From Escherichia coli (GTDB lineage Bacteria > Pseudomonadota > Gammaproteobacteria > Enterobacterales > Enterobacteriaceae): DNA of 64,000 nt. Within the stretch, counting starts at the first letter, position 1. Each line of letters starts with the position of its first letter. The DNA is taken from the NCBI RefSeq assembly GCF_024223415.1, contig NZ_CP100500.1; one strand, given 5' to 3'. Shown here one piece after another: positions 1 to 20,839 of the stretch. The notes beneath the pieces were generated by a model. The model had not been told where the DNA came from. It did no database searches and worked only from the letters and a program-made list of their open reading frames with translations. Position numbers and translations under genes: made by a program.

Positions 1-1
1 T

Positions 2-1555
2 AAAGTGTTCCTTGAAAAATACACCACCGGGTATCCGCAGTTTGAAGAATATCTGACAGGTAAGAGCGATAATACTCCGAAGAGCGCGGCCTGGGCGGCG
101 GAAATTACTGGCGTACCGGAAGCGCAGATAGTCAAACTCGCTGAACTGATGGCGGCGAATCGCACAATGCTGATGGCAGGCTGGGGAATTCAGCGCCAGC
201 AATATGGTGAACAGAAACACTGGATGCTGGTGACGCTGGCGGCGATGTTAGGGCAGATTGGTACACCGGGCGGCGGTTTTGGTTTCTCTTATCATTACTC
301 CAACGGTGGCAACCCGACGCGTGTTGGCGGCGTGCTGCCGGAAATGTCTGCGGCGATTGCCGGACAGGCCAGCGAGGCCGCTGATGATGGCGGAATGACG
401 GCGATTCCTGTTGCCCGTATCGTCGATGCGCTGGAAAATCCTGGCGGCAAATATCAGCATAACGGTAAAGAACAAACGTATCCGAATATCAAAATGATCT
501 GGTGGGCGGGTGGTGGTAACTTTACCCATCACCAGGATACTAATCGTCTGATCAAAGCATGGCAGAAACCGGAGATGATCGTCGTTTCTGAATGCTACTG
601 GACTGCAGCTGCTAAACATGCAGATATCGTATTACCGATCACCACATCGTTTGAGCGCAATGACTTGACGATGACCGGTGATTACAGCAACCAGCATATT
701 GTGCCGATGAAGCAGGCTGTCGCTCCGCAATTTGAAGCGCGTAACGATTTTGACGTGTTTGCCGATCTTGCTGAATTACTGAAACCTGGCGGAAAAGAGA
801 TCTATACCGAAGGTAAAGATGAAATGGCGTGGCTGAAATTTTTCTATGATGCCGCTCAGAAAGGTGCCCGTGCGCAACGCGTCACTATGCCAATGTTTAA
901 TGCCTTCTGGCAGCAAAATAAACTGATCGAAATGCGCCGCAGCGAGAAGAACGAACAGTATGTTCGTTATGGTGATTTCCGCGCCGATCCGGTGAAAAAT
1001 GCGCTGGGTACGCCAAGCGGCAAAATTGAGATTTACTCCAAAACGCTGGAAAAATTTGGCTATAAGGATTGCCCGGCACACCCAACCTGGCTTGCGCCTG
1101 ATGAGTGGAAGGGTACCGCCGACGAGAAGCAGTTGCAGCTTCTGACCGCACATCCGGCACACCGTTTACACAGTCAGCTTAACTATGCGGAACTGCGTAA
1201 AAAATATGCGGTTGCCGATCGTGAACCAATCACTATTCACACCGAAGATGCTGCTCGCTTTGGTATTGCGAATGGTGATCTGGTGCGTGTCTGGAACAAA
1301 CGTGGTCAGATTCTGACAGGTGCGGTGGTGACTGACGGGATCAAAAAAGGCGTGGTATGCGTGCATGAAGGTGCATGGCCAGATCTGGAAAATGGCTTGT
1401 GTAAAAACGGCAGTGCGAACGTGTTAACCGCGGATATCCCCAGCTCGCAGCTGGCAAATGCCTGTGCCGGTAACTCTGCGCTGGTGTATATCGAAAAATA
1501 TACGGGTAACGCACCGAAGTTAACGGCGTTTGATCAGCCAGCTGTTCAGGCGTAA
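2..1555 (+). CDS. torZ: trimethylamine-N-oxide reductase TorZ/BisZ, C-terminal part (5' end outside window)
   Basis: ORF 5..1555 translation reads as the C-terminal region of a molybdopterin oxidoreductase; sits next to cmoB-cmoA as in E. coli. Confidence 0.85.
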
Positions 1556-1599
1556 GACGTGAATAGCGCCCGGAAACGGGCGCAGAGGTTATGCAAACG

Positions 1600-1710
1600 T
1601 AAAGCTGCCTGATGCGCTATGCTTATCAGGCCTACATAGTCCCTGCAATATATTGAATTAGCAAGGTTTTGTAGGCCGGATAAGGCGTTCACGCCGCATC
1701 CGGCAGTAAT
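1600..1710. repeat. REP-like palindromic units in the torZ-cmoB convergent intergenic region
   Basis: Imperfect inverted repeats gcctgatgcgctatgcttatcaggcctaca and gtaggccggataaggcgttcacgccgcatccggca, typical of enterobacterial REP elements; coordinates approximate. Confidence 0.5.
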
Positions 1711-1719
1711 ACCAGACCT

Positions 1720-3867
<2,148 letters not shown>

Positions 3868-3919
3868 ACAAACTCCCTTTAAAATGGCCGATGGCACCTG
3901 TCTATGATAGGTGGCAAAT

Positions 3920-4678
3920 TCAGAAAAGAGAAGATTGCTGTGGAATAGCCGGAACTGCTCCGATCTCTGGAAGCGTTTTACGTAAGTCTTCCCACAGGGT
4001 ATGTACCAGTTCCGGTGCCTGGGCAATGTCTGGCGTATGTAAAAAAAGATAAGGCGTAGTGGTCTGATGCCACTGCGCTAATTTCTGTAACCAGACCTGA
4101 AATAATTCCCGGTTTTGCGTCATATCATCACTACCGATAAAACGGATCAGCGGATTTGTCGCCGTCAGTACAGCATGTACCGGAACTTTAGGTTTTTTTC
4201 GTTGAGCGTCGCGAATAGCTTCACTGTGTGGACGTGCTGCATGAACCGGGCGGCTGTCTAAAATCACCCGATTAACGCCGCGCTGATGTAAACCGCGATT
4301 AAGCGTTTGTTCCTCTTCCCCTTTGGCGAAAAACTGTGGATGGCGGACTTCCACACCATAATTAAATTCGCCAGGGAGAGAATCGAGAAAATGCCAAAGC
4401 GCAGGCAGCTCCCGTGGGCCGAATGTGGCAGGCAGTTGCAGCCAGTATTGCCCAATGCGCGGAGCCAACGGTGACATGCGGGTCAAAAATTCAGTCACTA
4501 AATCATCGCAATGTCGTAATGCTGCCTGATGCGAAATGGTCGCCGGAAACTTAAAACAGAAGCGGAAGTCATCTGTGGTCTGTTCACGCCAGCGCAGGAC
4601 AACCTCGGGTTTCGGCAGGGCGTAAAGCGTGGTGTTGCCCTCCACGCAGTTAACATGACGGGTATTGAAGGCTAACAC
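3920..4678 (-). CDS. yecE: DUF72 protein YecE with 5' end replaced by prophage sequence
   Basis: Body of the protein reads as YecE; the first ~10 codons (MLAFNTRHVN) differ from my recollection of the K-12 N-terminus, and the ORF overlaps the 3' end of the integrase gene. Confidence 0.75.
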   Translation of the reverse strand: MLAFNTRHVNCVEGNTTLYALPKPEVVLRWREQTTDDFRFCFKFPATISHQAALRHCDDLVTEFLTRMSPLAPRIGQYWLQLPATFGPRELPALWHFLDSLPGEFNYGVEVRHPQFFAKGEEEQTLNRGLHQRGVNRVILDSRPVHAARPHSEAIRDAQRKKPKVPVHAVLTATNPLIRFIGSDDMTQNRELFQVWLQKLAQWHQTTTPYLFLHTPDIAQAPELVHTLWEDLRKTLPEIGAVPAIPQQSSLF

Positions 4679-4690
4679 ACTGATTTTAAT
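4640..4690. other. putative prophage attachment junction (attL) within 5' end of yecE
   Basis: Point where YecE-like sequence ends and the integrase C-terminus overlaps; exact core not determinable without the other junction. Confidence 0.4.
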
Positions 4691-5985
4691 AAGTTTCTTG
4701 TGTCACTTTGGTGACCATGGGACATCATTGGGACATAATCTGCCAGCTTCTGATTCAGCATTGCGATCTGTTCTGCATTACTGTCAGTCATCCATGCTCC
4801 GTATACATTGAACACCATCTGGGCACTTGCATGGCCCATCTGGCTGGCAATGAAGCTTGGGTTTGCTCCGGCAGATAATGACCAGCACGCATAAGTGTGT
4901 CGTGACTGGTATGCTTTCCGGTGCCTGATGCCCGCACGCTTAATGGCTGTTTCCCATGAGTCGCCAATAGAATCTACCTTGTAGATAAAACCGACCTGTT
5001 TGCTTTTTCTAACCACCTGGGGGTTAAATACGAAAGTACATTCATGGTTCACTGTACGTCCATATTCACGTAGTTGAACCTTGATGTGGTGCTGCTTACC
5101 CAGTCTTGTCATTTCAGCCTGATTTTTCAGGACACTGATAGCGGGCTGGATAAGATGCACAACCCTGTTTGTACTTGCTTCAGTTTTAGGTAGAGTGAAC
5201 TCACCGAGTTTCGTATAATTGCGCCTGATAGTAATTGTTCCTGCTTTCAGATCGATATCTTCCCAGGCCAGGGAGACCAGTTCACCATGACGCATTCCTG
5301 TGTACACAGCCAATGACCACAGGTTTTTCGTCTGCTGATGTCGGCAAGCATCTATCAGGCGAATAAATTCGTCACGAGTTAGCGGATCTGGCTCTGCCCT
5401 GGCTCTTTTAAGAGGCTTAATTCCCTGGAAGGGATTTGCTTCTAAGTAACCGTGATCTGCAGCAAACTGAAACATTCCAGCGATTGTCGTCATGTAATAA
5501 TTTACAGTAACGACGCTCCGTCCTTTTGCTGCTGCTTTGTTTTTCGTTGAATTCTGGTACCCGGTCAGCAAATCTTTCCTGATATACAGCAATTCCTCTT
5601 TAGTTACCGATGACACCAGTCTGCTGCCTCCAATTTTCGGAACCATCGTTCTTGCAACGGATTCATAGCGATTGAATGCATTTGCAGAGATCTCCATTCG
5701 TTTCAGATCCAGCCACTTTTCTTCAAGTTCCTTCACCGTAATTTCTTTTTTACTTACCCCAAAAGCCTGAAGGTTAGGGGAGTCAGGGAACTGTGCAGCA
5801 TAATCAAAGCTTCCTGTGCGGATGGCAAAACATACCGATGTCCGCAGTTCCCCGGCGATCTTCCTGTTCTTGGCAGTGTCAGGGACACCAAGATTTTCCC
5901 TGACACGTTTACCTTTAAAATTAAACCAGATGCGTAATGTGCCGCCGTGGTTTTCGACGCCTGTTGGATATTTGACTTTATCCAT
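4672..5985 (-). CDS. int: phage integrase (tyrosine recombinase)
   Basis: 437 aa; N-terminal arm-binding-like region and C-terminal catalytic domain with conserved R..H..R..Y context (RHTYACW). Confidence 0.9.
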   Translation of the reverse strand: MDKVKYPTGVENHGGTLRIWFNFKGKRVRENLGVPDTAKNRKIAGELRTSVCFAIRTGSFDYAAQFPDSPNLQAFGVSKKEITVKELEEKWLDLKRMEISANAFNRYESVARTMVPKIGGSRLVSSVTKEELLYIRKDLLTGYQNSTKNKAAAKGRSVVTVNYYMTTIAGMFQFAADHGYLEANPFQGIKPLKRARAEPDPLTRDEFIRLIDACRHQQTKNLWSLAVYTGMRHGELVSLAWEDIDLKAGTITIRRNYTKLGEFTLPKTEASTNRVVHLIQPAISVLKNQAEMTRLGKQHHIKVQLREYGRTVNHECTFVFNPQVVRKSKQVGFIYKVDSIGDSWETAIKRAGIRHRKAYQSRHTYACWSLSAGANPSFIASQMGHASAQMVFNVYGAWMTDSNAEQIAMLNQKLADYVPMMSHGHQSDTRNLLKSVC

Positions 5986-10449: not shown

Positions 10450-11145
10450 CTAACCAAATCTGTTTATATTGAATGGTACTGATGAGATCACTTTAGACTG
10501 GATATAAAGCAGAGCTAACCCCTCTTTTTCGATGCTCCATGGTTGATAATTGGGGTTATCAGATAACACCATGATTTTGCTTCCAATTTTTTGAAGTCTT
10601 TTCACGTAGCATTCTCCATCAAAACAAAATGCATAAATGCCATCGCCATCAAAATAAGTTACTGTCTTATCAAGAAAAAGAAGGTCGCCAGGTGAGATTG
10701 TGGGAGCCATACTGTCTCCTCTGGCGTTACCTATTTCTATATTTTTGAATGCCCGATTTCCAACAAGGCGTCGGGCATATTCAGGATCAAGTTCTATTGA
10801 GCGCACTACATCTATCAAGTCACCACGGACATGAGTTCCATCACCGCAACTAAACTCAACATCAAGGACATTAAACACGACGCTATCTGTTCTTGTCTGG
10901 TGTTTCTCTTGCGAGGAAAAGGTTGGTGAGGAGTCTTCACCTAAGAACCAGGATTGTGGATAACCGCTAATCTCGGATAAATGCGCGAGCTTATCACTCC
11001 GTGGAAATGTTTTTCCTGTTGTCCAGTACTGCACTGATTGCGCACTCACACCTAACTTGCGGGCCAGTTGAGCCTGAGTCCATCCTTTTGCTTTCAGCAT
11101 CGCGGCTATTCGATTTTCCGTGTTTTTGACGTTCTTCATGACCAA
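10450..11145 (-). CDS. cI: CI-like repressor (HTH plus S24 LexA-type autopeptidase domain)
   Basis: 231 aa; N-terminal HTH (KGWTQAQLARKLGVSAQSVQYW), C-terminal S24 peptidase motifs (GDSMAPT...KRL); divergent from cro. Confidence 0.88.
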   Translation of the reverse strand: MVMKNVKNTENRIAAMLKAKGWTQAQLARKLGVSAQSVQYWTTGKTFPRSDKLAHLSEISGYPQSWFLGEDSSPTFSSQEKHQTRTDSVVFNVLDVEFSCGDGTHVRGDLIDVVRSIELDPEYARRLVGNRAFKNIEIGNARGDSMAPTISPGDLLFLDKTVTYFDGDGIYAFCFDGECYVKRLQKIGSKIMVLSDNPNYQPWSIEKEGLALLYIQSKVISSVPFNINRFG

Positions 11146-11648: not shown

Positions 11649-12494
11649 ATGATGATCAATAAACAAAAATTAGTCAACCCTGAAAACCTGCCAGTTATTG
11701 CTGGTGTAGAAATTTCAACTGATATGGTTGGGCGCTTTAATCTGAATGCATTGCATCGAGCCAGCGGTCTTGGCCCCAATAAAGCTCCGACGCAGTGGTT
11801 GCGTACTCAGTCAGCTAAACAACTTATTGAAGAGCTGGAAAAAGAAACTATGCAGAATTGCATAGTTTCACTGGAAGGGCGGAATGGCGGTACTTTTGCG
11901 CACGAACTGCTTGCTGTTGAATATGCAGGATGGATTTCTCCTGCGTTCCGGTTGCAGGTGAACCAGACTTTTATTGACTATCGTACTGGCAAACTTACAG
12001 CGGGCAATAATCAGTTGCCCAATTTTGACGATCCGATCGCTGCTGCTGAAGCGTGGATTGAAGCCAAAAAATCCGAACGCCTTGCTCTCGGGTATGCAGA
12101 GCGTCAGGCTCGCTACATCAGCAAACTCGAAAGCCATCTCGCCGATGGCATCACTCCTGTGCAGTTCTGCAAACAGCTCAACGGTGTAAACACTCGTCAG
12201 ATTAATGCGTTCCTTGAAGAGCGTAACTGGCTGTATGACGACCGTCCGGAGGCTATGTATCCGCGCTGGCGTGTAAAAGCGTATGCACGTGACCAATACC
12301 TGACTGAGCGTTCTGGGCAGGTTGAGCAGGAAAACGGGGAAATGCGCGAGATTTTCAAACCACTCCTGAAGAAAAAAGGTGCCGCCTGGTTATATCGCCA
12401 TTATCTGAACGGCGAACTACCGATGAAGAAAACATGGGATGGGCTGTTTACCCATAACACTGAGCTCGCGAATCTTTTACAGGAGAGCAAATGA
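11649..12494 (+). CDS. KilA-N domain antirepressor-like protein
   Basis: 281 aa; N-terminal KilA-N-like and C-terminal antirepressor-like regions. Confidence 0.65.
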   Translation: MMINKQKLVNPENLPVIAGVEISTDMVGRFNLNALHRASGLGPNKAPTQWLRTQSAKQLIEELEKETMQNCIVSLEGRNGGTFAHELLAVEYAGWISPAFRLQVNQTFIDYRTGKLTAGNNQLPNFDDPIAAAEAWIEAKKSERLALGYAERQARYISKLESHLADGITPVQFCKQLNGVNTRQINAFLEERNWLYDDRPEAMYPRWRVKAYARDQYLTERSGQVEQENGEMREIFKPLLKKKGAAWLYRHYLNGELPMKKTWDGLFTHNTELANLLQESK

Positions 12495-12703
12495 TGCAAA
12501 CCAAGACATGTGTAACTGGTGATGTCGATCTGAAACCTTGCCCGTTCTGCGGAAATCCGGAAGTACAACTCATTGAGGTGAAATATTTTCTGGATGGCGA
12601 TGATGGTTATTACGTCGCATGTACTTGCTGTAACGCAAACCAGATTCCTGATTCGAAAGAACGTGCTGTTCATGACTGGAACCAGCGCGAAAACGCGGAT
12701 TGA
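12491..12703 (+). CDS. lar: Lar-family restriction alleviation protein
   Basis: 70 aa Cys-rich protein with CPFCG...C.CC motif. Confidence 0.7.
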   Translation: MMQTKTCVTGDVDLKPCPFCGNPEVQLIEVKYFLDGDDGYYVACTCCNANQIPDSKERAVHDWNQRENAD

Positions 12704-13380
12704 CGGCGAGTAGGTACAAAATGATCCGCAACCAACATATTGATTCTGCAATTTCGGGACGTTACACTGTTCCAGCACCTTATAAAGCGGGTGCCGGGAT
12801 TGGAACCCCGGAATTGCATACGGCGATATACGACGCGCCAGCGTCTTTTTTATCGTCCGCGCTCACGCACGCCAGAATTATGGTGGGCTGGGCAGGGGAG
12901 CCGAAAGGCTCGCCGGTTTCCGTATGCGCCGGTAGTTCCAACCCTGTCCAGTTCACCACCAGTGAGATTGGAACCTCCGGTGGTGGAAGTTATCCATTGC
13001 ATACGGAGGCTGCCATCATGGCTACAGTCCCAACTTCCCCATACCTGAAAATCGAAGTCGTCAACGGCAAGGCCGTTATTTTCTCCCTGCATGTTGCCTG
13101 CCATTTCAAGCGCATGCACCAGAACATCGTCGACAAAATCGAGTATCTGAACTGCTCGCGCGAATTTTTTACCCGCAATTTCATACCGGGTACTTATCAC
13201 ATCTATGGTGACTCCCTGCGTGGTTATTACATCACCCTTGATGGTCTGATGATGCTTCAGCTTGGGTTAAGTCTACGCACAATGCGGTACTACGAGAGCT
13301 GCATTGAAGCATTCCAGGAGGCAGGGAACAGCCTGAATCTTACCGCTTTCCGCCGTAATCAGTGGGAGGCGCGTCCATGA
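12700..13380 (+). CDS. hypothetical protein (start uncertain; possibly internal Met at ~13018)
   Basis: ORF 12700..13380; the first ~100 codons are low-complexity and may be non-coding. Confidence 0.35.
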   Translation: MTASRYKMIRNQHIDSAISGRYTVPAPYKAGAGIGTPELHTAIYDAPASFLSSALTHARIMVGWAGEPKGSPVSVCAGSSNPVQFTTSEIGTSGGGSYPLHTEAAIMATVPTSPYLKIEVVNGKAVIFSLHVACHFKRMHQNIVDKIEYLNCSREFFTRNFIPGTYHIYGDSLRGYYITLDGLMMLQLGLSLRTMRYYESCIEAFQEAGNSLNLTAFRRNQWEARP

Positions 13381-13571: not shown

Positions 13572-13792
13572 TCCGCCACATCGTTAATTTCCGGTATCAC
13601 CGATACAACCATTGCCCCCGTGTGGGGCAGTGGTTCACCACCAGCAACGGCCACGTTCTGCGGGTTTGCCTGGTCAATACAGAAAGCCAGAAGGTTGTCT
13701 GCCAGGTTCAGGGACGTACTCATACCCTGAGTTATCCACTGGCAGTGTTTCAGTCCGGAAAAATGTTTAAACGCCTGGGAGGTGCCGTGTGA
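13568..13792 (+). CDS. hypothetical small phage protein
   Basis: 74 aa, translationally coupled in the early-right operon. Confidence 0.4.
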   Translation: MIRHIVNFRYHRYNHCPRVGQWFTTSNGHVLRVCLVNTESQKVVCQVQGRTHTLSYPLAVFQSGKMFKRLGGAV

Positions 13793-14781
13793 GTCGTTAC
13801 GCACCTACACCGGAAGTTATGGCTATTGGTCAAATTAATATTTCCGGCAATGTCACCCCCGCGAACTGGTGGAAACATATTCGGCTACCCAGTGGTCGTC
13901 CGGATGCGACTGCTATCGCCTTGCTTTCAGAAATTGTTTACTGGTACCGCCCGACAGAACTCCGGGATGAGCATACCGGGGCTTTGCTGGGATATCGCAA
14001 GCGTTTTCAGGGTGACAAACTGCAAAGAAGCTATCAGGCGTTTGCTGAGCAATTTGGCTTCGGGAAAAGGGAAACCGCAGATGCGCTGAAGCGTCTTCGC
14101 GATGCAGGGTTTATTACTCTGGATTTACGCACCGTAGAAATGCTCGATGGTGTGAAATGCAGCAATATTTTGTTTGTCGGGATCAACCCACAGGCAGTTG
14201 CTGCCATTACCACACCTTCTTCTGTTTCGCCAGAAAGTAACAGCAATAACGCAATCAGCGACACAGCTATTACGTTAAAACGGAACACCCCCCAACGTCA
14301 TAACGGAACAGGGGATACGCCGAATGTTGATACAAATACAGAGATTACTACAGAGATTACAACGGAGACTAAAAACACTATTGGCGCATCCGCTGACGCG
14401 TCTGCACCAGCGCGTTCCGCCCGACAGGAATATTCACCGGAATTTGAACAGGTCTGGCAGGAATATCCCAAACGTGCTGGTGGCAATTCCAAGTCAGCAG
14501 CCTTCAAAGCCTGGAAAGCCCGTCTCAGGGAGGGAATAAAACCGGAGACCATGCTTGATGGTGTGAGACGTTATGCCGCCTGGGTACGTGCTACAGGAAA
14601 TACCGGCACACAGTTCGTGAAGCAGGCGTCGACGTTCTTTGGCCCCGATCGGCACTTTGACGAATCCTGGCAACAGCCAGCCGCTCCCGGAGGTGGGCGA
14701 CAGCGACAGGTCGATGTCCTGGCTGGCCTGGGAGCCATGTCTGACAAATTCGGTAAATCCAGTGACAAATTGACATTCTGA
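13789..14781 (+). CDS. replication initiation protein (replisome organizer, lambda O-like)
   Basis: 330 aa; N-terminal replisome-organizer-like region; internal TEITTEITTE encoded by direct nucleotide repeats (possible iterons). Confidence 0.7.
   Translation: MSRYAPTPEVMAIGQINISGNVTPANWWKHIRLPSGRPDATAIALLSEIVYWYRPTELRDEHTGALLGYRKRFQGDKLQRSYQAFAEQFGFGKRETADALKRLRDAGFITLDLRTVEMLDGVKCSNILFVGINPQAVAAITTPSSVSPESNSNNAISDTAITLKRNTPQRHNGTGDTPNVDTNTEITTEITTETKNTIGASADASAPARSARQEYSPEFEQVWQEYPKRAGGNSKSAAFKAWKARLREGIKPETMLDGVRRYAAWVRATGNTGTQFVKQASTFFGPDRHFDESWQQPAAPGGGRQRQVDVLAGLGAMSDKFGKSSDKLTF
14335..14380. repeat. iteron-like direct repeats inside the replication initiator gene (candidate ori)
   Basis: acagagattac repeated in tandem; lambdoid origins lie within the O gene; coordinates approximate. 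Confidence 0.35.
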
Positions 14782-14782
14782 G

Positions 14783-15670
14783 GTGACAGCGATGATGACA
14801 CTTAACCTGCGTGAACAACAAACAAGACTACAGGCGCGGATGGATGAGTTACGGGCAGAGATTGCATTTGCTCAGAATGGCGAAAAGCCATGGCCTTATC
14901 GATCCTGCTGGATGCGTGAAGGGCGCGGGTGTTGCGAAAAACATGGCGAATACCACACACATATTCTGGTGTGGAGCGATCGTAATGGCGAGGATAGAGA
15001 AAAAATTTCATGCTGCCCTGACTGCTTGATAGCTGAGGCCAACGATTTGACCATGGAGCTGTCGTCCCTCAAGGCGGAAGAACTGACTGATAACGCCGGA
15101 ATTGCTCTGCGTTTTCGGGACTGCGAGTTTGATAATTATCTGGAGGTTAATCCTGACGCAGCCAGAAATCTTGCGGCCTGTCGCCGCTATGCGGAGAACT
15201 GGCCAGATATGCTGGAGAACGGTACCAGTCTTGTTATGACCGGCAGTTGCGGTACCGGGAAAAATCATCTGGCGGTATCAATGGCAAAACACATCATCCG
15301 TAACTATCTGGCCAGTGTGGAGATCACCGACGTGATGCGCCTTACCCGTGCTGTGAAAAACTGCTGGCGGAATGACAGTGAAAAAACAGCGGATGACGTC
15401 ATTGAGCATTATGCGTCACTGGATTTGCTGATCATCGACGAAGTCGGCGTTCAGTTTGGCAGTGCGGCTAAAATGGCCATTTTGCAGGAAATTATCAATG
15501 CCCGGTATGAGGGTATTTTGCCAACTATCTTGATCAGCAACCTTTCACCGGAAGAATTGTGGGCGTTCATCAGTCCCCGGATTGCCGACAGGATCACCGA
15601 TGGCGGGCGCAACTGGTTGTCGTTTAACTGGCCCAGCTACCGTTCTCGTATCGGAGGTGTTGCCGCATGA
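14783..15670 (+). CDS. DnaC-like helicase loader (IstB-type AAA+ ATPase)
   Basis: 295 aa; Walker A GSCGTGKNHLA and Walker B LLIIDEVG. Confidence 0.85.
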   Translation: MTAMMTLNLREQQTRLQARMDELRAEIAFAQNGEKPWPYRSCWMREGRGCCEKHGEYHTHILVWSDRNGEDREKISCCPDCLIAEANDLTMELSSLKAEELTDNAGIALRFRDCEFDNYLEVNPDAARNLAACRRYAENWPDMLENGTSLVMTGSCGTGKNHLAVSMAKHIIRNYLASVEITDVMRLTRAVKNCWRNDSEKTADDVIEHYASLDLLIIDEVGVQFGSAAKMAILQEIINARYEGILPTILISNLSPEELWAFISPRIADRITDGGRNWLSFNWPSYRSRIGGVAA

Positions 15671-17067
15671 CCAGCCAGAACACCCCGGCATGGCGTAACG
15701 ATGACCTGGAAGGTGCGGTGATTGGCGCGTTTTTTCTGCGTGGGGCAGATCCGGAAGTGATGGATATTCTGGCCACGCTTCCGGCGGATGTATTTTTCGT
15801 GCGTCAGTACCGGGATATTTACGCGGGGATTTGCAGACAGGCCCGCGTATCCGGCGTCATTGACCCCGTGCTGCTGTGCAATGAGATGCCGGAACTTGCC
15901 CCGGTGATTACCGACACCGGGCGCAAAACCTGGGTGAAGTCTTCACTGGAACACTATGTTGCAGCGCTGCGGCGAAATGCCGTACTGCGCGATGCAGAAA
16001 AAACACTGACCGAAGCATTACAGAATTTACGGGATGCACATACCTGCGAAGCAGCCGAGGATGCCCTGAAGGATGCGCAGAACATGATGGCCTCACTGTC
16101 GACCGGAAAGGGCGTCATTCAGCCGGTTCACATTGATGATGTCCTTCCGGAAGTGGTGGGCCGTGTTGAATGCCGGAATCAGGGACTGGAGAAATCCAGA
16201 ACGCTGATGACCGGTATTGATGAACTGGACGCAAAAACAGGGGGTATGGAGCCAGGCGACCTGGTATTCATTGCGGCTCGTCCTTCGATGGGGAAAACCG
16301 AACTGGCGCTGGACATCATCGACAAGGTGACTGAGCAGGGGCATGGCGTGCTTCTGTTCACCATGGAGATGGCGAACATCCAGATTGGTGAACGTATGGT
16401 GTCTTCTGCCGGTGGAATGCCGGTATCCCGTCTTAAGTCTGCTGCCCGTTTTGAAGACGAAGACTGGGCACGTTTCTCACAGGGTGTGGGACGAATGACG
16501 GGGCGTAATATCTGGATGGTGGACCAGGCAAATCTGACCATTGATGAGATATGTGCAACCACGAGGTACCACCGGATGAAGCATCCGGAAACGGCGCTGG
16601 TGGTGGTTGATTACCTCGGTCTGATTAAAACCCGCAGCACGGGGCGTCACGACCTTGCTGTGGGGGAAATCTCAAAGGGACTTAAAAGTCTGGCAAAATC
16701 CGGCGGTTTCCCGCTGATTGCACTGAGTCAGCTCTCCCGTGGTGTGGAATCCAGACCCAATAAACGCCCCATGAACTCGGATCTGAAAAATTCCGGGGAA
16801 ATAGAGGCGGATGCCGACATCATTCTGATGCTTTACAGGGATGAGGTGTATAACCCGGATACACAGGCCAGAGGCATAGCAGAAATCAACATCACGAAAC
16901 AGCGTAATGGCACTCTCGGGACCATTTACCGGCGTTTTCATAACGGGCATTTTCTGCCTGTGGATCAGGAAAGCGCTCAGGTTCTTTCCACACCCATGAC
17001 GCCGGGCAATCCGCGCAGATACAGCAATAACCGCATGTCGGGCAGTAAAGCGGAGCGTTTATTTTGA
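15667..17067 (+). CDS. DnaB-family replicative DNA helicase
   Basis: 466 aa; RecA-like C-terminal domain with Walker A (ARPSMGKTE) and DnaB-like motifs. Confidence 0.88.
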   Translation: MTSQNTPAWRNDDLEGAVIGAFFLRGADPEVMDILATLPADVFFVRQYRDIYAGICRQARVSGVIDPVLLCNEMPELAPVITDTGRKTWVKSSLEHYVAALRRNAVLRDAEKTLTEALQNLRDAHTCEAAEDALKDAQNMMASLSTGKGVIQPVHIDDVLPEVVGRVECRNQGLEKSRTLMTGIDELDAKTGGMEPGDLVFIAARPSMGKTELALDIIDKVTEQGHGVLLFTMEMANIQIGERMVSSAGGMPVSRLKSAARFEDEDWARFSQGVGRMTGRNIWMVDQANLTIDEICATTRYHRMKHPETALVVVDYLGLIKTRSTGRHDLAVGEISKGLKSLAKSGGFPLIALSQLSRGVESRPNKRPMNSDLKNSGEIEADADIILMLYRDEVYNPDTQARGIAEINITKQRNGTLGTIYRRFHNGHFLPVDQESAQVLSTPMTPGNPRRYSNNRMSGSKAERLF

Positions 17068-17321
17068 ATAACAGAACAGCCACTGTTTCACCGGAACAAC
17101 TTCGTCGCCAGGCGCAGGAGATGCTTCGTTGTGCTGAACAGATGGAAAAAATGAGCGTGGCAAAGGATACGCTCCGCAAGCAGCTTACTCCGGCGCTTCG
17201 TGATCTGCTGCAGGCAAAACACCGCACACAAAAGGCGGTGGATGAGCTGGTGGATTGCGTGGCGGAACTGGAAGGCAAGGTAAGCCAGTTTGAAACTCTG
17301 GTGAAGGAGTTTACTGCGTGA
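17064..17321 (+). CDS. hypothetical protein (coiled-coil)
   Basis: 85 aa, coupled to the helicase gene. Confidence 0.4.
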   Translation: MNNRTATVSPEQLRRQAQEMLRCAEQMEKMSVAKDTLRKQLTPALRDLLQAKHRTQKAVDELVDCVAELEGKVSQFETLVKEFTA

Positions 17322-17366: not shown

Positions 17367-18362
17367 GTGACCGTGAGAGCACTACTGACCCCTGAAATTG
17401 CCCCGCGTATGGGGATCGTATTGTTCAGGCCAGGTTCAGAGCTGATGCCCCTGTTTATGCAGGGGCGTGTCCTGCTGGAGCCTGAGCCGGAACGTTATTC
17501 ATCTTTCGCCAGTGGTGCCGTTCCGGCGGCATCACAACCGCTGGCGGATGATCCTGCCGTACGGGCCGTGTTCCGCAATGAGGCAGTAATCCGTCGTGCT
17601 GGTGGCGTGGAATGTCTTGAAAGCTGGTTACTTCGTGAAAAAGGCTGCCAGTGGCCTCATTCCGACTGGCACAGCGAGAACATGACCACAATGCGACACG
17701 CTCCGGGTGCAATCCGTCTGTGCTGGCACTGCGATAACCAGCTGTGCGATCAGTTCACGGAACGGCTGGAATCAATGGCAACGGATAACTGTGCTCGCTG
17801 GGTGTTGTCTGTCGTGCGTCGGGATCTCGGTTTTGATGATAGTCATGTTGTGACAATGCCGGAACTGTGCTGGTGGCTGGTTCGTAATGACCTGGCGGAT
17901 ACCTTACCGGAAAGTGCAGCCCGTAAGGCACTGAGATTACCGAATCCTGTTGTGCCGTCTGTCACCCGGGAGAGTGACCTTGTTCCTTCGGTTCCTGCCA
18001 CCAGCATTATCCAGGATAAAGCGAAAAAGGTGCTGGCGCTGAAAGTGGATCCGGAGTCGCCGGAGTCTTTTATGTTACGCCCAAAACGTCGCCGCTGGGT
18101 TAATGAAAAGTACACGCGCTGGGTTAAGACACAGCCGTGTGCATGTTGTGGAAAGCCTGCTGATGATCCCCACCACCTGATAGGTCACGGTCAGGGGGGA
18201 ATGGGTACAAAAGCGCATGACCTCTTTGTGTTGCCTTTGTGCAGAAAGCATCACGACGAGCTGCATGCGGATACCGTGGCATTTGAAGTGAAGTATGGCT
18301 CCCAGCTGGAGCTGATATTTCGTTTTATCGATCGTGCGCTGGCAACTGGTGTGCTGGCCTGA
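17367..18362 (+). CDS. DUF968-like protein with C-terminal HNH-type Cys/His motif
   Basis: 331 aa; C-terminus CACCGK...HHLIGHG...CRKHHDELH resembles an HNH nuclease finger. Confidence 0.55.
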
Positions 18363-18364
18363 TT

Positions 18365-18802
18365 TTGTGGAGAAAGTTGATGCGTGATATTCAAATGGTT
18401 CTTGAACGTTGGGGGGCATGGGTCGCAAATAATCATGAAGACGTGGAATGGTCAGGCATTGCCGCCGGATTTAAGGGGCTGATACCGTCAAAAGTAAAAT
18501 CGCGATCGCAGTGTTCCGATGATGACGCGATGATTATATGTGGTTGTATGGCTCGCCTGAAAAAGAACAACGCCGATATGCATGACATGCTGGTTGATTA
18601 CTACGTATATGGGATGACGTTCATGAAGTTAGCAATGAAACATGGATGTTCGGATACGCATATTGGAAAGCGTTTGCAAAAAGCTGAAGGAGTGGTTGAT
18701 GGTATGTTGATGATGCTAGATGTTCGCCTTGAGATGGATCGATATGTGAGCACAAATTATTCGATACGTCGTAAAACTGCGTCCTCCAGGGCAGGGATAT
18801 AA
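18365..18802 (+). CDS. late gene antiterminator Q
   Basis: 145 aa; resembles the Q family of E. coli cryptic prophages ([14 protein letters not shown]...). Confidence 0.75.
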
Positions 18803-18980: not shown

Positions 18981-20087
18981 TCAGAACTGATAAACCAGAC
19001 CAACAGCGACAATATCGTCGGTTGATACTCCTGTTCTTTCAGTGAATTTATTTTTATCGAGCATATTGATTTTGTAATCTATGTATGTAGACATATTTTT
19101 GTTGAAGTAATAAGAAGCCCCTACTTCAACGAATTTTTCAATATATCCGTCATCATGTTTTTTACTAATATCAGTACTGGATGAAAGGTTTTTTGCTTTA
19201 GAGTGGGTATAAGCAAGAGACGGGCGTAATCCAAAGTCGAACTGGTATTGTGCCACAACAGTGAAATCTTCGGTTTTATTCGCCACTCCTGAAATATTAT
19301 CACCATACGATATTGCACGGGTATTATTTGTTTCACCATAACTGGCAGCCAGGTACAGATTATTTGCGTCATATTTTACCCCGGTGGCCCACTGTTCAGC
19401 TTTTTTCCCTTTACCAAGCTCAGCCTTTTTCTGATTTTTAGTACGATCAGCAGCGCCGTATGCTGCGACAAAACCAAATCCTTCATATTCATAGCTGACA
19501 GAGCCACCTACACCCTCTCCGTTTGAAGTATCTGGTTTATCCTTGCGTTCATTTTTTCCCAGATACTGAATTGCAAAGCTAAGCCCATCGACCAGTCCAA
19601 AAAAGTCAGTGTTGCGGTATGTGGCAACACCGCCTACACGACCAACGAAGAAGTTATCCTTTTGCGCTGCGGTAGGTCCAAACTCCGGGAAGACGTCAGT
19701 GTAGCTTAATGCGTCGTACACCACGCCGTAGTTACGACCATAATCAAGAGAGCCAGCATCTGCAAGCTTCAGACCAGCGTATGCCAGGCGAGTCTTGTTT
19801 CCAGTTTGAGCTCCATCCCCTTCAGGGTTGTTCCCCTGGAAATTATATTCCCACTGACCAAAACCAGTAATATAATTATTTATTTGGGTTTCACCTCTGA
19901 ATCCAAGGCGTGCGTAAGTCTGATCTCCGTTTTGGTCCTTATCAGAAGAAAAATAATGTAAACCAACTGCTTTACCGTATAAATCCACTTTGTTTGCATC
20001 TTTATTGTATATTTATGCTGCATTTGAAGACGTTGCCAGAAATACTGATGCTGCTACAGCAGAAAGTGCCACTGTTAAATTTTTCAT
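18981..20087 (-). pseudogene. OmpC/OmpF/NmpC-family porin gene interrupted by an in-frame TAA at codon 25
   Basis: Hand translation from the ATG at ~20087 gives signal peptide MKNLTVALSAVAASVFLATSSNAA, then TAA (20013..20015) where porins have Glu of AEIYNKD, then [15 protein letters not shown]... continuing as ORF 18981..19988. Confidence 0.75.
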
Positions 20088-20685: not shown

Positions 20686-20761
20686 GGCCCTTTAGCTCAG
20701 TGGTGAGAGCGAGCGACTCATAATCGCAAGGGCGCTGGTTCAAATTCAGCAAGGGCCACCA
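20686..20761 (+). tRNA. tRNA with CAU anticodon (Met, or Ile2 if lysidine-modified)
   Basis: Hand-folded cloverleaf: acceptor GGCCCTT/AAGGGCC, D-arm TAGCTCAGTGGTGAGAGC, anticodon loop CTCATAA, T-loop TTCAAAT, 3' CCA; coordinates approximate. Confidence 0.75.
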
Positions 20762-20762
20762 A

Positions 20763-20839
20763 CCGCTACTAGCTCATCAGGAAAGAGCGTCAACCCTTTA
20801 AGTTGAGTGCGCTAGGTTCGATTCCCCGCTGGCGGTCCA
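20763..20839 (+). tRNA. tRNA-like sequence, degenerate (possible tRNA or tRNA pseudogene)
   Basis: D-arm (GCTC...GAGC) and T-loop (GGTTCGATTCC) are tRNA-like and 3' ends in CCA, but T-stem has mismatches and anticodon loop CCTTTAA lacks U33. Confidence 0.35.

Follow-up and report, generated by a model that had tools for sequence, protein, structure and literature searches.

The locus described here raises the question whether a prophage of Escherichia coli supplies both a replicative helicase and the loader for it, and might thus replicate without the host proteins DnaB and DnaC. The window, i.e. the whole 64-kb stretch of contig NZ_CP100500.1 that was analysed, contains a prophage of E. coli or Shigella type. 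Three co-directional open reading frames (ORFs) on its + strand code for a replication initiator (13789–14781), a DnaC-like ATPase (14783/14792–15670) and a DnaB-like helicase (15667–17067). An earlier note, made from the sequence alone, had proposed that an initiator is followed by both a loader and a full DnaB-family helicase, and all three ORFs are present in this order. With a probability of about 75%, the trio is a replication module of the type known from phage phiP27, belongs to the early operon of an E. coli prophage with lambdoid organisation and works by the mechanism proposed below.

The helicase, the DnaC-like loader and the operon

The third ORF (15667–17067, + strand) encodes a complete DnaB-family replicative helicase of 466 amino acids (aa). 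It matches the DnaB_C model (PF03796) with an E-value of 2.7e-74 (250 bits, cut-off 27) over profile positions 2–248 of 255, and residues 12–90 match the model of the DnaB N-terminal domain (PF00772; 1e-5, 26.0 bits, cut-off 23). Residues 15–430 align with residues 34–458 of the 471 residues of E. coli DnaB (4.7e-66). The ATPase motifs (Walker A, Walker B, H3, H4) align with those of E. coli DnaB and are largely identical; the aligned stretches read ARPSMGKT, VVVDYLGL, SQLSR, NSDLKNSGEIEADAD and KQRNG. By both alignments the helicase domain is complete; an incomplete one would have refuted the proposal of the earlier note. The bit scores are below the equivalog cut-offs of two NCBIfam models, TIGR00665 for cellular DnaB (314 versus 385.25 bits) and TIGR03600, 'phage_DnaB' (280 versus 498.65 bits). 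Judged by these profiles, the protein is a member of the DnaB family and not an equivalog of either curated group. The helicase gp12 of phage P22 is 40% identical over the full length (5e-111).

The second ORF, on the same strand, extends mechanically from GTG 14783 to 15670 (295 aa). Most likely, translation starts at ATG 14792, because a ribosome-binding sequence (GAGGTG) is located six bases before this codon and the RefSeq homologue has a length of 292 aa, which is that of the product from ATG 14792. The product is a DnaC-like AAA+ protein. It matches PHROG 50, 'DnaC-like helicase loader' (4.6e-88), and its best match in the PDB is E. coli DnaC (6qel; residues 90–292 against 45–242, 1.3e-28). 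Walker A (GTGKNH) and Walker B (DLLIIDE) are intact. In an alignment of ten loader sequences, E. coli DnaC among them, the residues G154, G157–K160, D219, E220, N253, D269–R270 and R287 are invariant, in keeping with an AAA+ core that has Walker, sensor and arginine-finger positions. The NCBIfam DnaC model NF005931 is matched with 4.2e-36 and 124.7 bits, below its equivalog cut-off of 357. On the basis of these profiles the loader is assigned to the DnaC/DnaI/IstB clade of AAA+ ATPases and is not an equivalog of the E. coli-type DnaC.

The top Pfam match of this ORF is IstB_IS21 (PF01695; 5.6e-14, 52.6 bits, cut-off 24.1). It could accordingly be the transposition helper of an IS21-like element, or the module could be a decayed, non-functional remnant, at which the host loci flanking the prophage also hint, since their distance in K-12 points to a rearrangement (see below). 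The match to the IS21 helper model is, however, weaker (5.8e-18) than that to the DnaC model, and no IstA transposase is encoded adjacent to the ORF. On these two grounds the identification as IS21 IstB was rejected. Furthermore, E. coli DnaC is the best match in the PDB, the ATPase motifs are intact, and all three ORFs are of full length and 95–98% identical to those of deposited complete genome records of Shiga toxin (Stx) phages. A transposition helper or a dead remnant is thus highly improbable.

The first ~90 aa of the loader differ from DnaC and are outside the alignment with it. This N-terminal region contains a cluster of cysteine and histidine residues (C51, H54, C78 and C81; 14933–15025, + strand) with the pattern C-x2-H ... 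C-P-x-C. The four positions are at least 90% conserved in phage loaders from Escherichia, Klebsiella, Vibrio, Pseudomonas and Ralstonia; the pattern is presumably missing from E. coli DnaC. The motif recalls the zinc-binding N-domain of Bacillus DnaI, and we infer that the cluster is a metal-binding zinc ribbon.

Start and stop codons overlap in GTGA at 13789, ATGA at 15667 and TTGA at 17064. The first two of these junctions are preceded by Shine–Dalgarno sequences, GGGAGGTG ahead of the GTGA and GGAGGTG ahead of the ATGA. Together, overlaps and Shine–Dalgarno sequences indicate that the trio is one translationally coupled operon.

The initiator and a putative origin in its gene

The initiator gene (13789–14781, + strand) encodes 330 aa and matches PHROG 270, 'replication initiation protein' (7.6e-79). 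Its 1641 homologues carry the NCBI name 'replication protein'; searches with the whole protein gave no match in Pfam, NCBIfam or the sequences of the PDB. The AlphaFold2 model consists of four parts. An N-terminal winged-helix domain (aa 1–144; 13789–14220, + strand) is predicted with a predicted local distance difference test score (pLDDT) of 72–92 by block. It is followed by a disordered linker (aa 145–212; 14221–14424; pLDDT below 50), a C-terminal helical domain, in this report called iniC (aa 213–297; 14425–14679, + strand; block pLDDT 70–86), and a disordered tail (aa 298–330; 14680–14778, + strand; pLDDT below 50).

Foldseek searches with the full model retrieved only generic winged-helix folds, none of them significant (best E-value 1e-2); DnaD-N (2v79) was found for the N-domain at rank 17 (0.2). 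The N-domain also has a faint match to HTH_36 (0.02), and relatives with other N-domains match DnaD_N at 6e-5 and 1e-2. The N-domain is presumed to bind the origin and to set the specificity of the initiator.

The C-domain iniC matches PHROG 1701, which is labelled 'DnaD-like' (1.7e-39), and resembles DnaD only weakly. The domain modelled alone has a mean pLDDT of 85. At E-values up to 1e-3 it is found widely, in 5078 representatives of 50% clusters; among the matches listed, it is located at or near the C-terminus in proteins of ~250–400 aa. Pfam searches with the domain of the window and its relatives found no model, and a profile of 33 diverse iniC domains found no match in the PDB. By these searches, iniC is an uncurated domain that is common among the replication proteins of phages and prophages; it is presumed to act as the adaptor to the loader and the helicase.

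The initiator had been described as O-like. This holds for the architecture and the presumed role and fails for the family. Phage_rep_O (PF04492) is not matched at E-values up to 0.01 by the whole initiator or up to 10 by the N-domain, and a direct comparison with gp18 of P22 found no similarity. In contrast, gp18 and the initiators of Escherichia phage N7 and Klebsiella phage 6 match PF04492 at ~1e-36. PHROGs labelled 'O-like' are matched only weakly (1.3e-6 and 1.2e-4). Membership in the lambda O family was rejected because PF04492 is not matched.

All repeats of the initiator gene are located in the DNA coding for the disordered linker (14221–14424), which is the putative replication origin. 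Two 16-nt direct repeats, ACGT[TC]A[AT]AACGGAACA, are positioned 23 nt apart (14272–14287 and 14295–14310) and are candidate iterons for binding of the initiator; no further copy with two or fewer mismatches was found in the whole window. Downstream of them the 12-mer TACAGAGATTAC is repeated 2.7 times in tandem (14337–14368; Tandem Repeats Finder score 50) and encodes TEITTEITTE. The AT content of the gene peaks in the stretch that contains this tandem (14320–14380, 65–68%), and we infer that this AT-rich run is an unwinding element. The gene contains eight qualifying pairs of 16-mers; in 300 dinucleotide-preserving shuffles the mean was 0.04, and eight pairs were never reached. The iteron-like repeats that the earlier note had seen within the initiator gene are thereby supported, and the comparative data given below strengthen the case. 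The putative origin has no DnaA box; matches in or near the module are found only at 10955 and 15352.

In relatives of the initiator, four unrelated N-domains are fused to nearly identical residues 198–330, and each type of N-domain is accompanied by different repeat families, which occupy the same place in the gene. The phiP27 gene has five copies of a 25-nt unit, some of them overlapping at 15-nt spacing, and two 20-mers. In PhiR49_2 four repeats of 21–24 nt are accompanied by three 11-mers, and in EH2201 13-mers are combined with 12-mers. Furthermore, 12-mers like TACAGAGATTAC recur beside several unrelated types of N-domain. In locus L061 the N-domain is 71% identical to that of the window at the protein and DNA level alike. 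Both copies of the 16-mer of this locus read ACGCCAAAACGGAACA, with the same change in each. Compared to this locus, the zone 14266–14380 is the best-conserved DNA of the gene (90%; folded domains 71–79%), and in a comparison with locus L043, too, conservation is higher in the repeat zone than in each of the folded domains.

The 12-mers code for a repetitive disordered peptide, and the TEIT-type motif is conserved across genera. The linker repeats might exist only because the peptide is of low complexity (TEITTEITTE and the like), and the origin might be located elsewhere. Disordered linkers are rarely conserved, yet the DNA of this linker is better conserved than that of the folded domains. 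The number of peptide copies varies (three in the Yersinia protein P0065), and the repeat families switch along with the type of N-domain. Lambda also has its origin in the initiator gene. The same position is described for phage SPP1 (PMC5499656). A mere peptide effect is improbable in the light of these observations, and the DNA data point to a putative origin within the initiator gene, in an architecture of the lambda O/ori type.

Inheritance of the module and proposed mechanism

IMG/VR was scanned with the loader alignment, and phmmer was then run on all ORFs of the loci. In all 56 loci with a loader at least 50% identical to that of the window, a DnaB-like gene is located directly downstream and iniC directly upstream. 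The same neighbours are present in 6/6 GenBank or RefSeq loci with loaders of 55–98% identity. Below this range the picture changes: helicase and iniC were found within 5 kb in 0/24 IMG/VR loci (loaders 39–46% identical) and, by annotation, within a flank of 2.5 kb in none of five GenBank phages (32–43%). Pairwise identities of loader and helicase correlate with r = 0.78, a value uncorrected for shared ancestry.

In six loci (L006, L047, L049, L051, L052 and L059) a second allele replaces, as one cassette, the tail of the initiator and the entire loader (window 14680–15067). The tail of these loci is 20–27% identical to that of the window, the loader N-terminus 25–29% and the loader overall 55%, with iniC at 89–96% and DnaB at 91–98%. 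The boundary of the exchange falls at the junction of iniC and tail. This suggests a joint function of, or a contact between, the tail and the loader N-terminus; linkage alone could also explain the exchange.

The following mechanism is proposed. The initiator would bind the short direct repeats in its own gene with its winged-helix domain, and the duplex would open at the AT-rich 12-mer run beside them, in the DNA coding for the linker. Then iniC and the tail would recruit the phage DnaC-like AAA+ loader, as the strict co-inheritance and the cassette exchange at a domain boundary suggest. The loader is expected, from its homology to E. coli DnaC and that of the helicase to DnaB, to place the hexameric DnaB-family helicase of the phage on the opened strands. 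Host primase, polymerase III and SSB should still be required, since no primase or polymerase gene is present in or beside the module. Replication would then be independent of host DnaB and probably also of host DnaC. By analogy with gp12 of P22 (40% identical), such an independence is plausible. The genomic context supports the assignment to an early operon: genes for a CI-like repressor, for Cro, for an antirepressor and for Rha precede the module, and the gene for the Q antiterminator comes after it.

The DnaC-like protein may instead act on host DnaB, which it would load or sequester in the manner of lambda P and, presumably, of the loaders in two-gene modules; in that case the helicase of the phage would be redundant or be loaded directly by the initiator, as is assumed for gp18 and gp12 of P22. 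Closely related loaders with the zinc motif do accompany an initiator in N7, Klebsiella phage 6, Vibrio X29, Pseudomonas U9 and Ralstonia Eline, where no phage helicase is present within the 2.5-kb flank, P22 has initiator and helicase without a loader, and the same helicase is found with two divergent loader alleles. However, the loader subclade of at least 50% identity always occurs together with the helicase (62/62 loci), and the ATGA overlap of loader stop and helicase start suggests stoichiometric co-expression. Action on host DnaB is therefore rather unlikely, and delivery of the phage helicase by the phage loader is preferred.

Several points weigh against the proposed mechanism. The two loader alleles are only 55% identical and adjoin helicases that are 89–99% identical; accordingly, the specificity between loader and helicase is either broad or located outside the differences of the alleles. 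Co-inheritance of adjacent genes can result from linkage alone. In the window the 16-nt repeat occurs only twice and the 12-mer 2.7 times, which is fewer than the four iterons of lambda. Finally, the literature on phiP27 replication, the 2002 phiP27 genome paper aside, yielded no experiment on the module.

A broader model can be put forward tentatively, and we regard it as doubtful in its entirety. In this model iniC, the zinc-motif loader and the helicase would form a self-contained helicase-delivery cassette, to which winged-helix domains would be joined interchangeably, each bringing iterons of its own. The AT-rich TEIT 12-mer run would be the common site of unwinding and loading, the tail would contact the N-terminal region of the loader, and the phages would be indifferent to host DnaB and DnaC across Enterobacterales.

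Prophage setting and related replication systems

The left flank of the prophage carries torZ-cmoB-cmoA-yecN-yecE (window 1–5000), the right flank trpE/D/C of the trp operon and yciQ (56000–64000). We take these loci to be several hundred kb apart in E. coli K-12. For this reason the prophage may be located at an inversion or at a recombination joint of two prophages, or may be a chimera. A 437-aa ORF on the minus strand (4672–5985) abuts yecE and is, judged from its position, probably the integrase. The gene of the CI-like repressor (10450–11145, minus strand) is followed by genes for a Cro/YdaS-like protein, a KilA-N/Ant antirepressor and an Ash/Rha regulator, by two small ORFs and by the replication trio. 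The KilA-N/ANT and Ash/Rha genes (11649–13380) occupy the position between cro and the replication genes, by which the published 'Eru' typing classifies Stx phages.

The start of an 85-aa ORF (17064–17321, + strand; PHROG 2565) overlaps the helicase stop. This accessory ORF is present in 31 of 62 trio loci, all of the E. coli-type subgroup, to which a neighbouring 74-aa ORF is also limited. Both were rejected as core members because they are missing from more distant trio loci. A DUF968/HNH-type nuclease gene (17367–18362; YdfU-like, PHROG 96), found in 15/62 trio loci, lies between the replication genes and the Q antiterminator gene (18365–18802). Just beyond Q and opposite to it, a porin gene is located on the minus strand (18981–19988). 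Genes for tRNA-Met and tRNA-Lys (20686–20839) follow, ahead of the lysis genes. No stx genes were found in the late region, which instead contains the porin, tRNA and lysis genes and the terminase.

The trio is annotated in phiP27 and ~25 other phage records. In megablast searches the loader, the helicase and the C-terminal half of the initiator are 90–96% identical in phiP27 and ten Stx2 phage records and ~88% identical in others. A match is present in 479 of 5426 complete E. coli genomes; in 282 of these the match extends over at least 80% of the query, and the best full-length match has 95.3% identity. The trio had been presented as unusual, which is overstated: by these comparisons it is a known and common module, ordinary among E. 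coli prophages, many Shiga toxin phages included, and its discovery value is small. As far as the literature search shows, the replication genes of phages bearing the trio have apparently never been studied experimentally. Should these Stx phages indeed replicate without host DnaB and DnaC, this would matter for the dependence of induction and of toxin-gene amplification on the physiology of the host.

Among 120 Stx phages surveyed, only 9 are of the lambda O/P type (PMC8951638). Helicases with a DnaB domain are encoded by Eru2 (57 phages) and Eru3 (18 phages) (PMC8044961; counts from PMC8951638). The survey assigns 20 phages to Eru7, with Stx2_14040 (LC567818) as the reference phage (PMC8951638). 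Stx2_14040 carries the same trio as the window, and its cI is likewise separated from the initiator gene by genes of the Rha and antirepressor types. It differs in the loader, which is the second allele (55% identical), and in the initiator tail. In its available part, the Eru7 paper uses the Rha gene beside cI for typing and does not name DnaC or DnaB (PMC8951638); the trio group is sorted there by regulatory and not by replication genes.

Among the closest known systems is that of phiP27 (Stx2e, NC_003356). The genes L17-L18-L19 of this phage are the same three genes in the same order, followed by the 85-aa ORF, and RefSeq names two of the products 'DnaC-like helicase loader' and 'replicative DNA helicase'. 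Over the second half of the initiator gene, the loader gene and the complete helicase gene, DNA identity is 90–96%. The first ~185–195 aa of the initiator and the repeats before the conserved part are, in contrast, of a different type; the initiator type of the window is shared, with 90–97% identity, by further genomes of E. coli, Shigella and Citrobacter. The Stx1a/Stx2a phages LC567818–LC567842, ASU11 and PhiR49_2 have the same trio as phiP27 and the window.

Public annotations of these genes are swapped or wrong in several records (loci L003, L004 and L006 of the LC5678xx series and ASU11, ON416862). In these records 'DNA helicase' or 'putative transcriptional regulator' stands for the DnaC-like gene, and 'replication protein' or 'DNA primase/helicase' for the DnaB-like gene. 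The initiator, although not of the O family, appears as 'replication protein O' or 'primosomal protein I'.

Two-gene modules, consisting of an initiator and a DnaC-like loader with the zinc motif, are found in Escherichia phage N7, Klebsiella phage 6 (LV-2017), Vibrio X29, Pseudomonas vB_Pae_U9 and Ralstonia Eline. These loaders are homologous to that of the window (32–43% identity) and keep the C-x2-H ... C-P-x-C pattern. The modules differ in that they have no helicase gene within the 2.5-kb flank and no iniC domain, and N7 and Klebsiella phage 6 have initiators that truly belong to the O family, unlike that of the window. Like the prophage of the window, P22 is lambdoid and has its own DnaB-family helicase (gp12) directly after the initiator (gp18). 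P22 has no loader gene, however, and gp18 belongs to Phage_rep_O and is unrelated to the initiator of the window.

In lambda, the O protein has an N-terminal specificity domain, the repeats of the origin are located within the gene at the linker, and the C-terminal part faces the next protein. The likeness to the window consists in the order of the domains and in the repeats at the linker of the initiator's own gene. The differences are the missing PF04492 match, a loader of the AAA+ DnaC type in place of P, and a helicase encoded by the phage and not by the host. SPP1 combines an initiator with the origin in its own gene, a phage loader and a phage DnaB-type helicase (G38P, G39P and G40P; PMC5499656). 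Although G39P is not an AAA+ protein and the host of SPP1 is Gram-positive, SPP1 is the best-studied functional analogue of a three-gene module.

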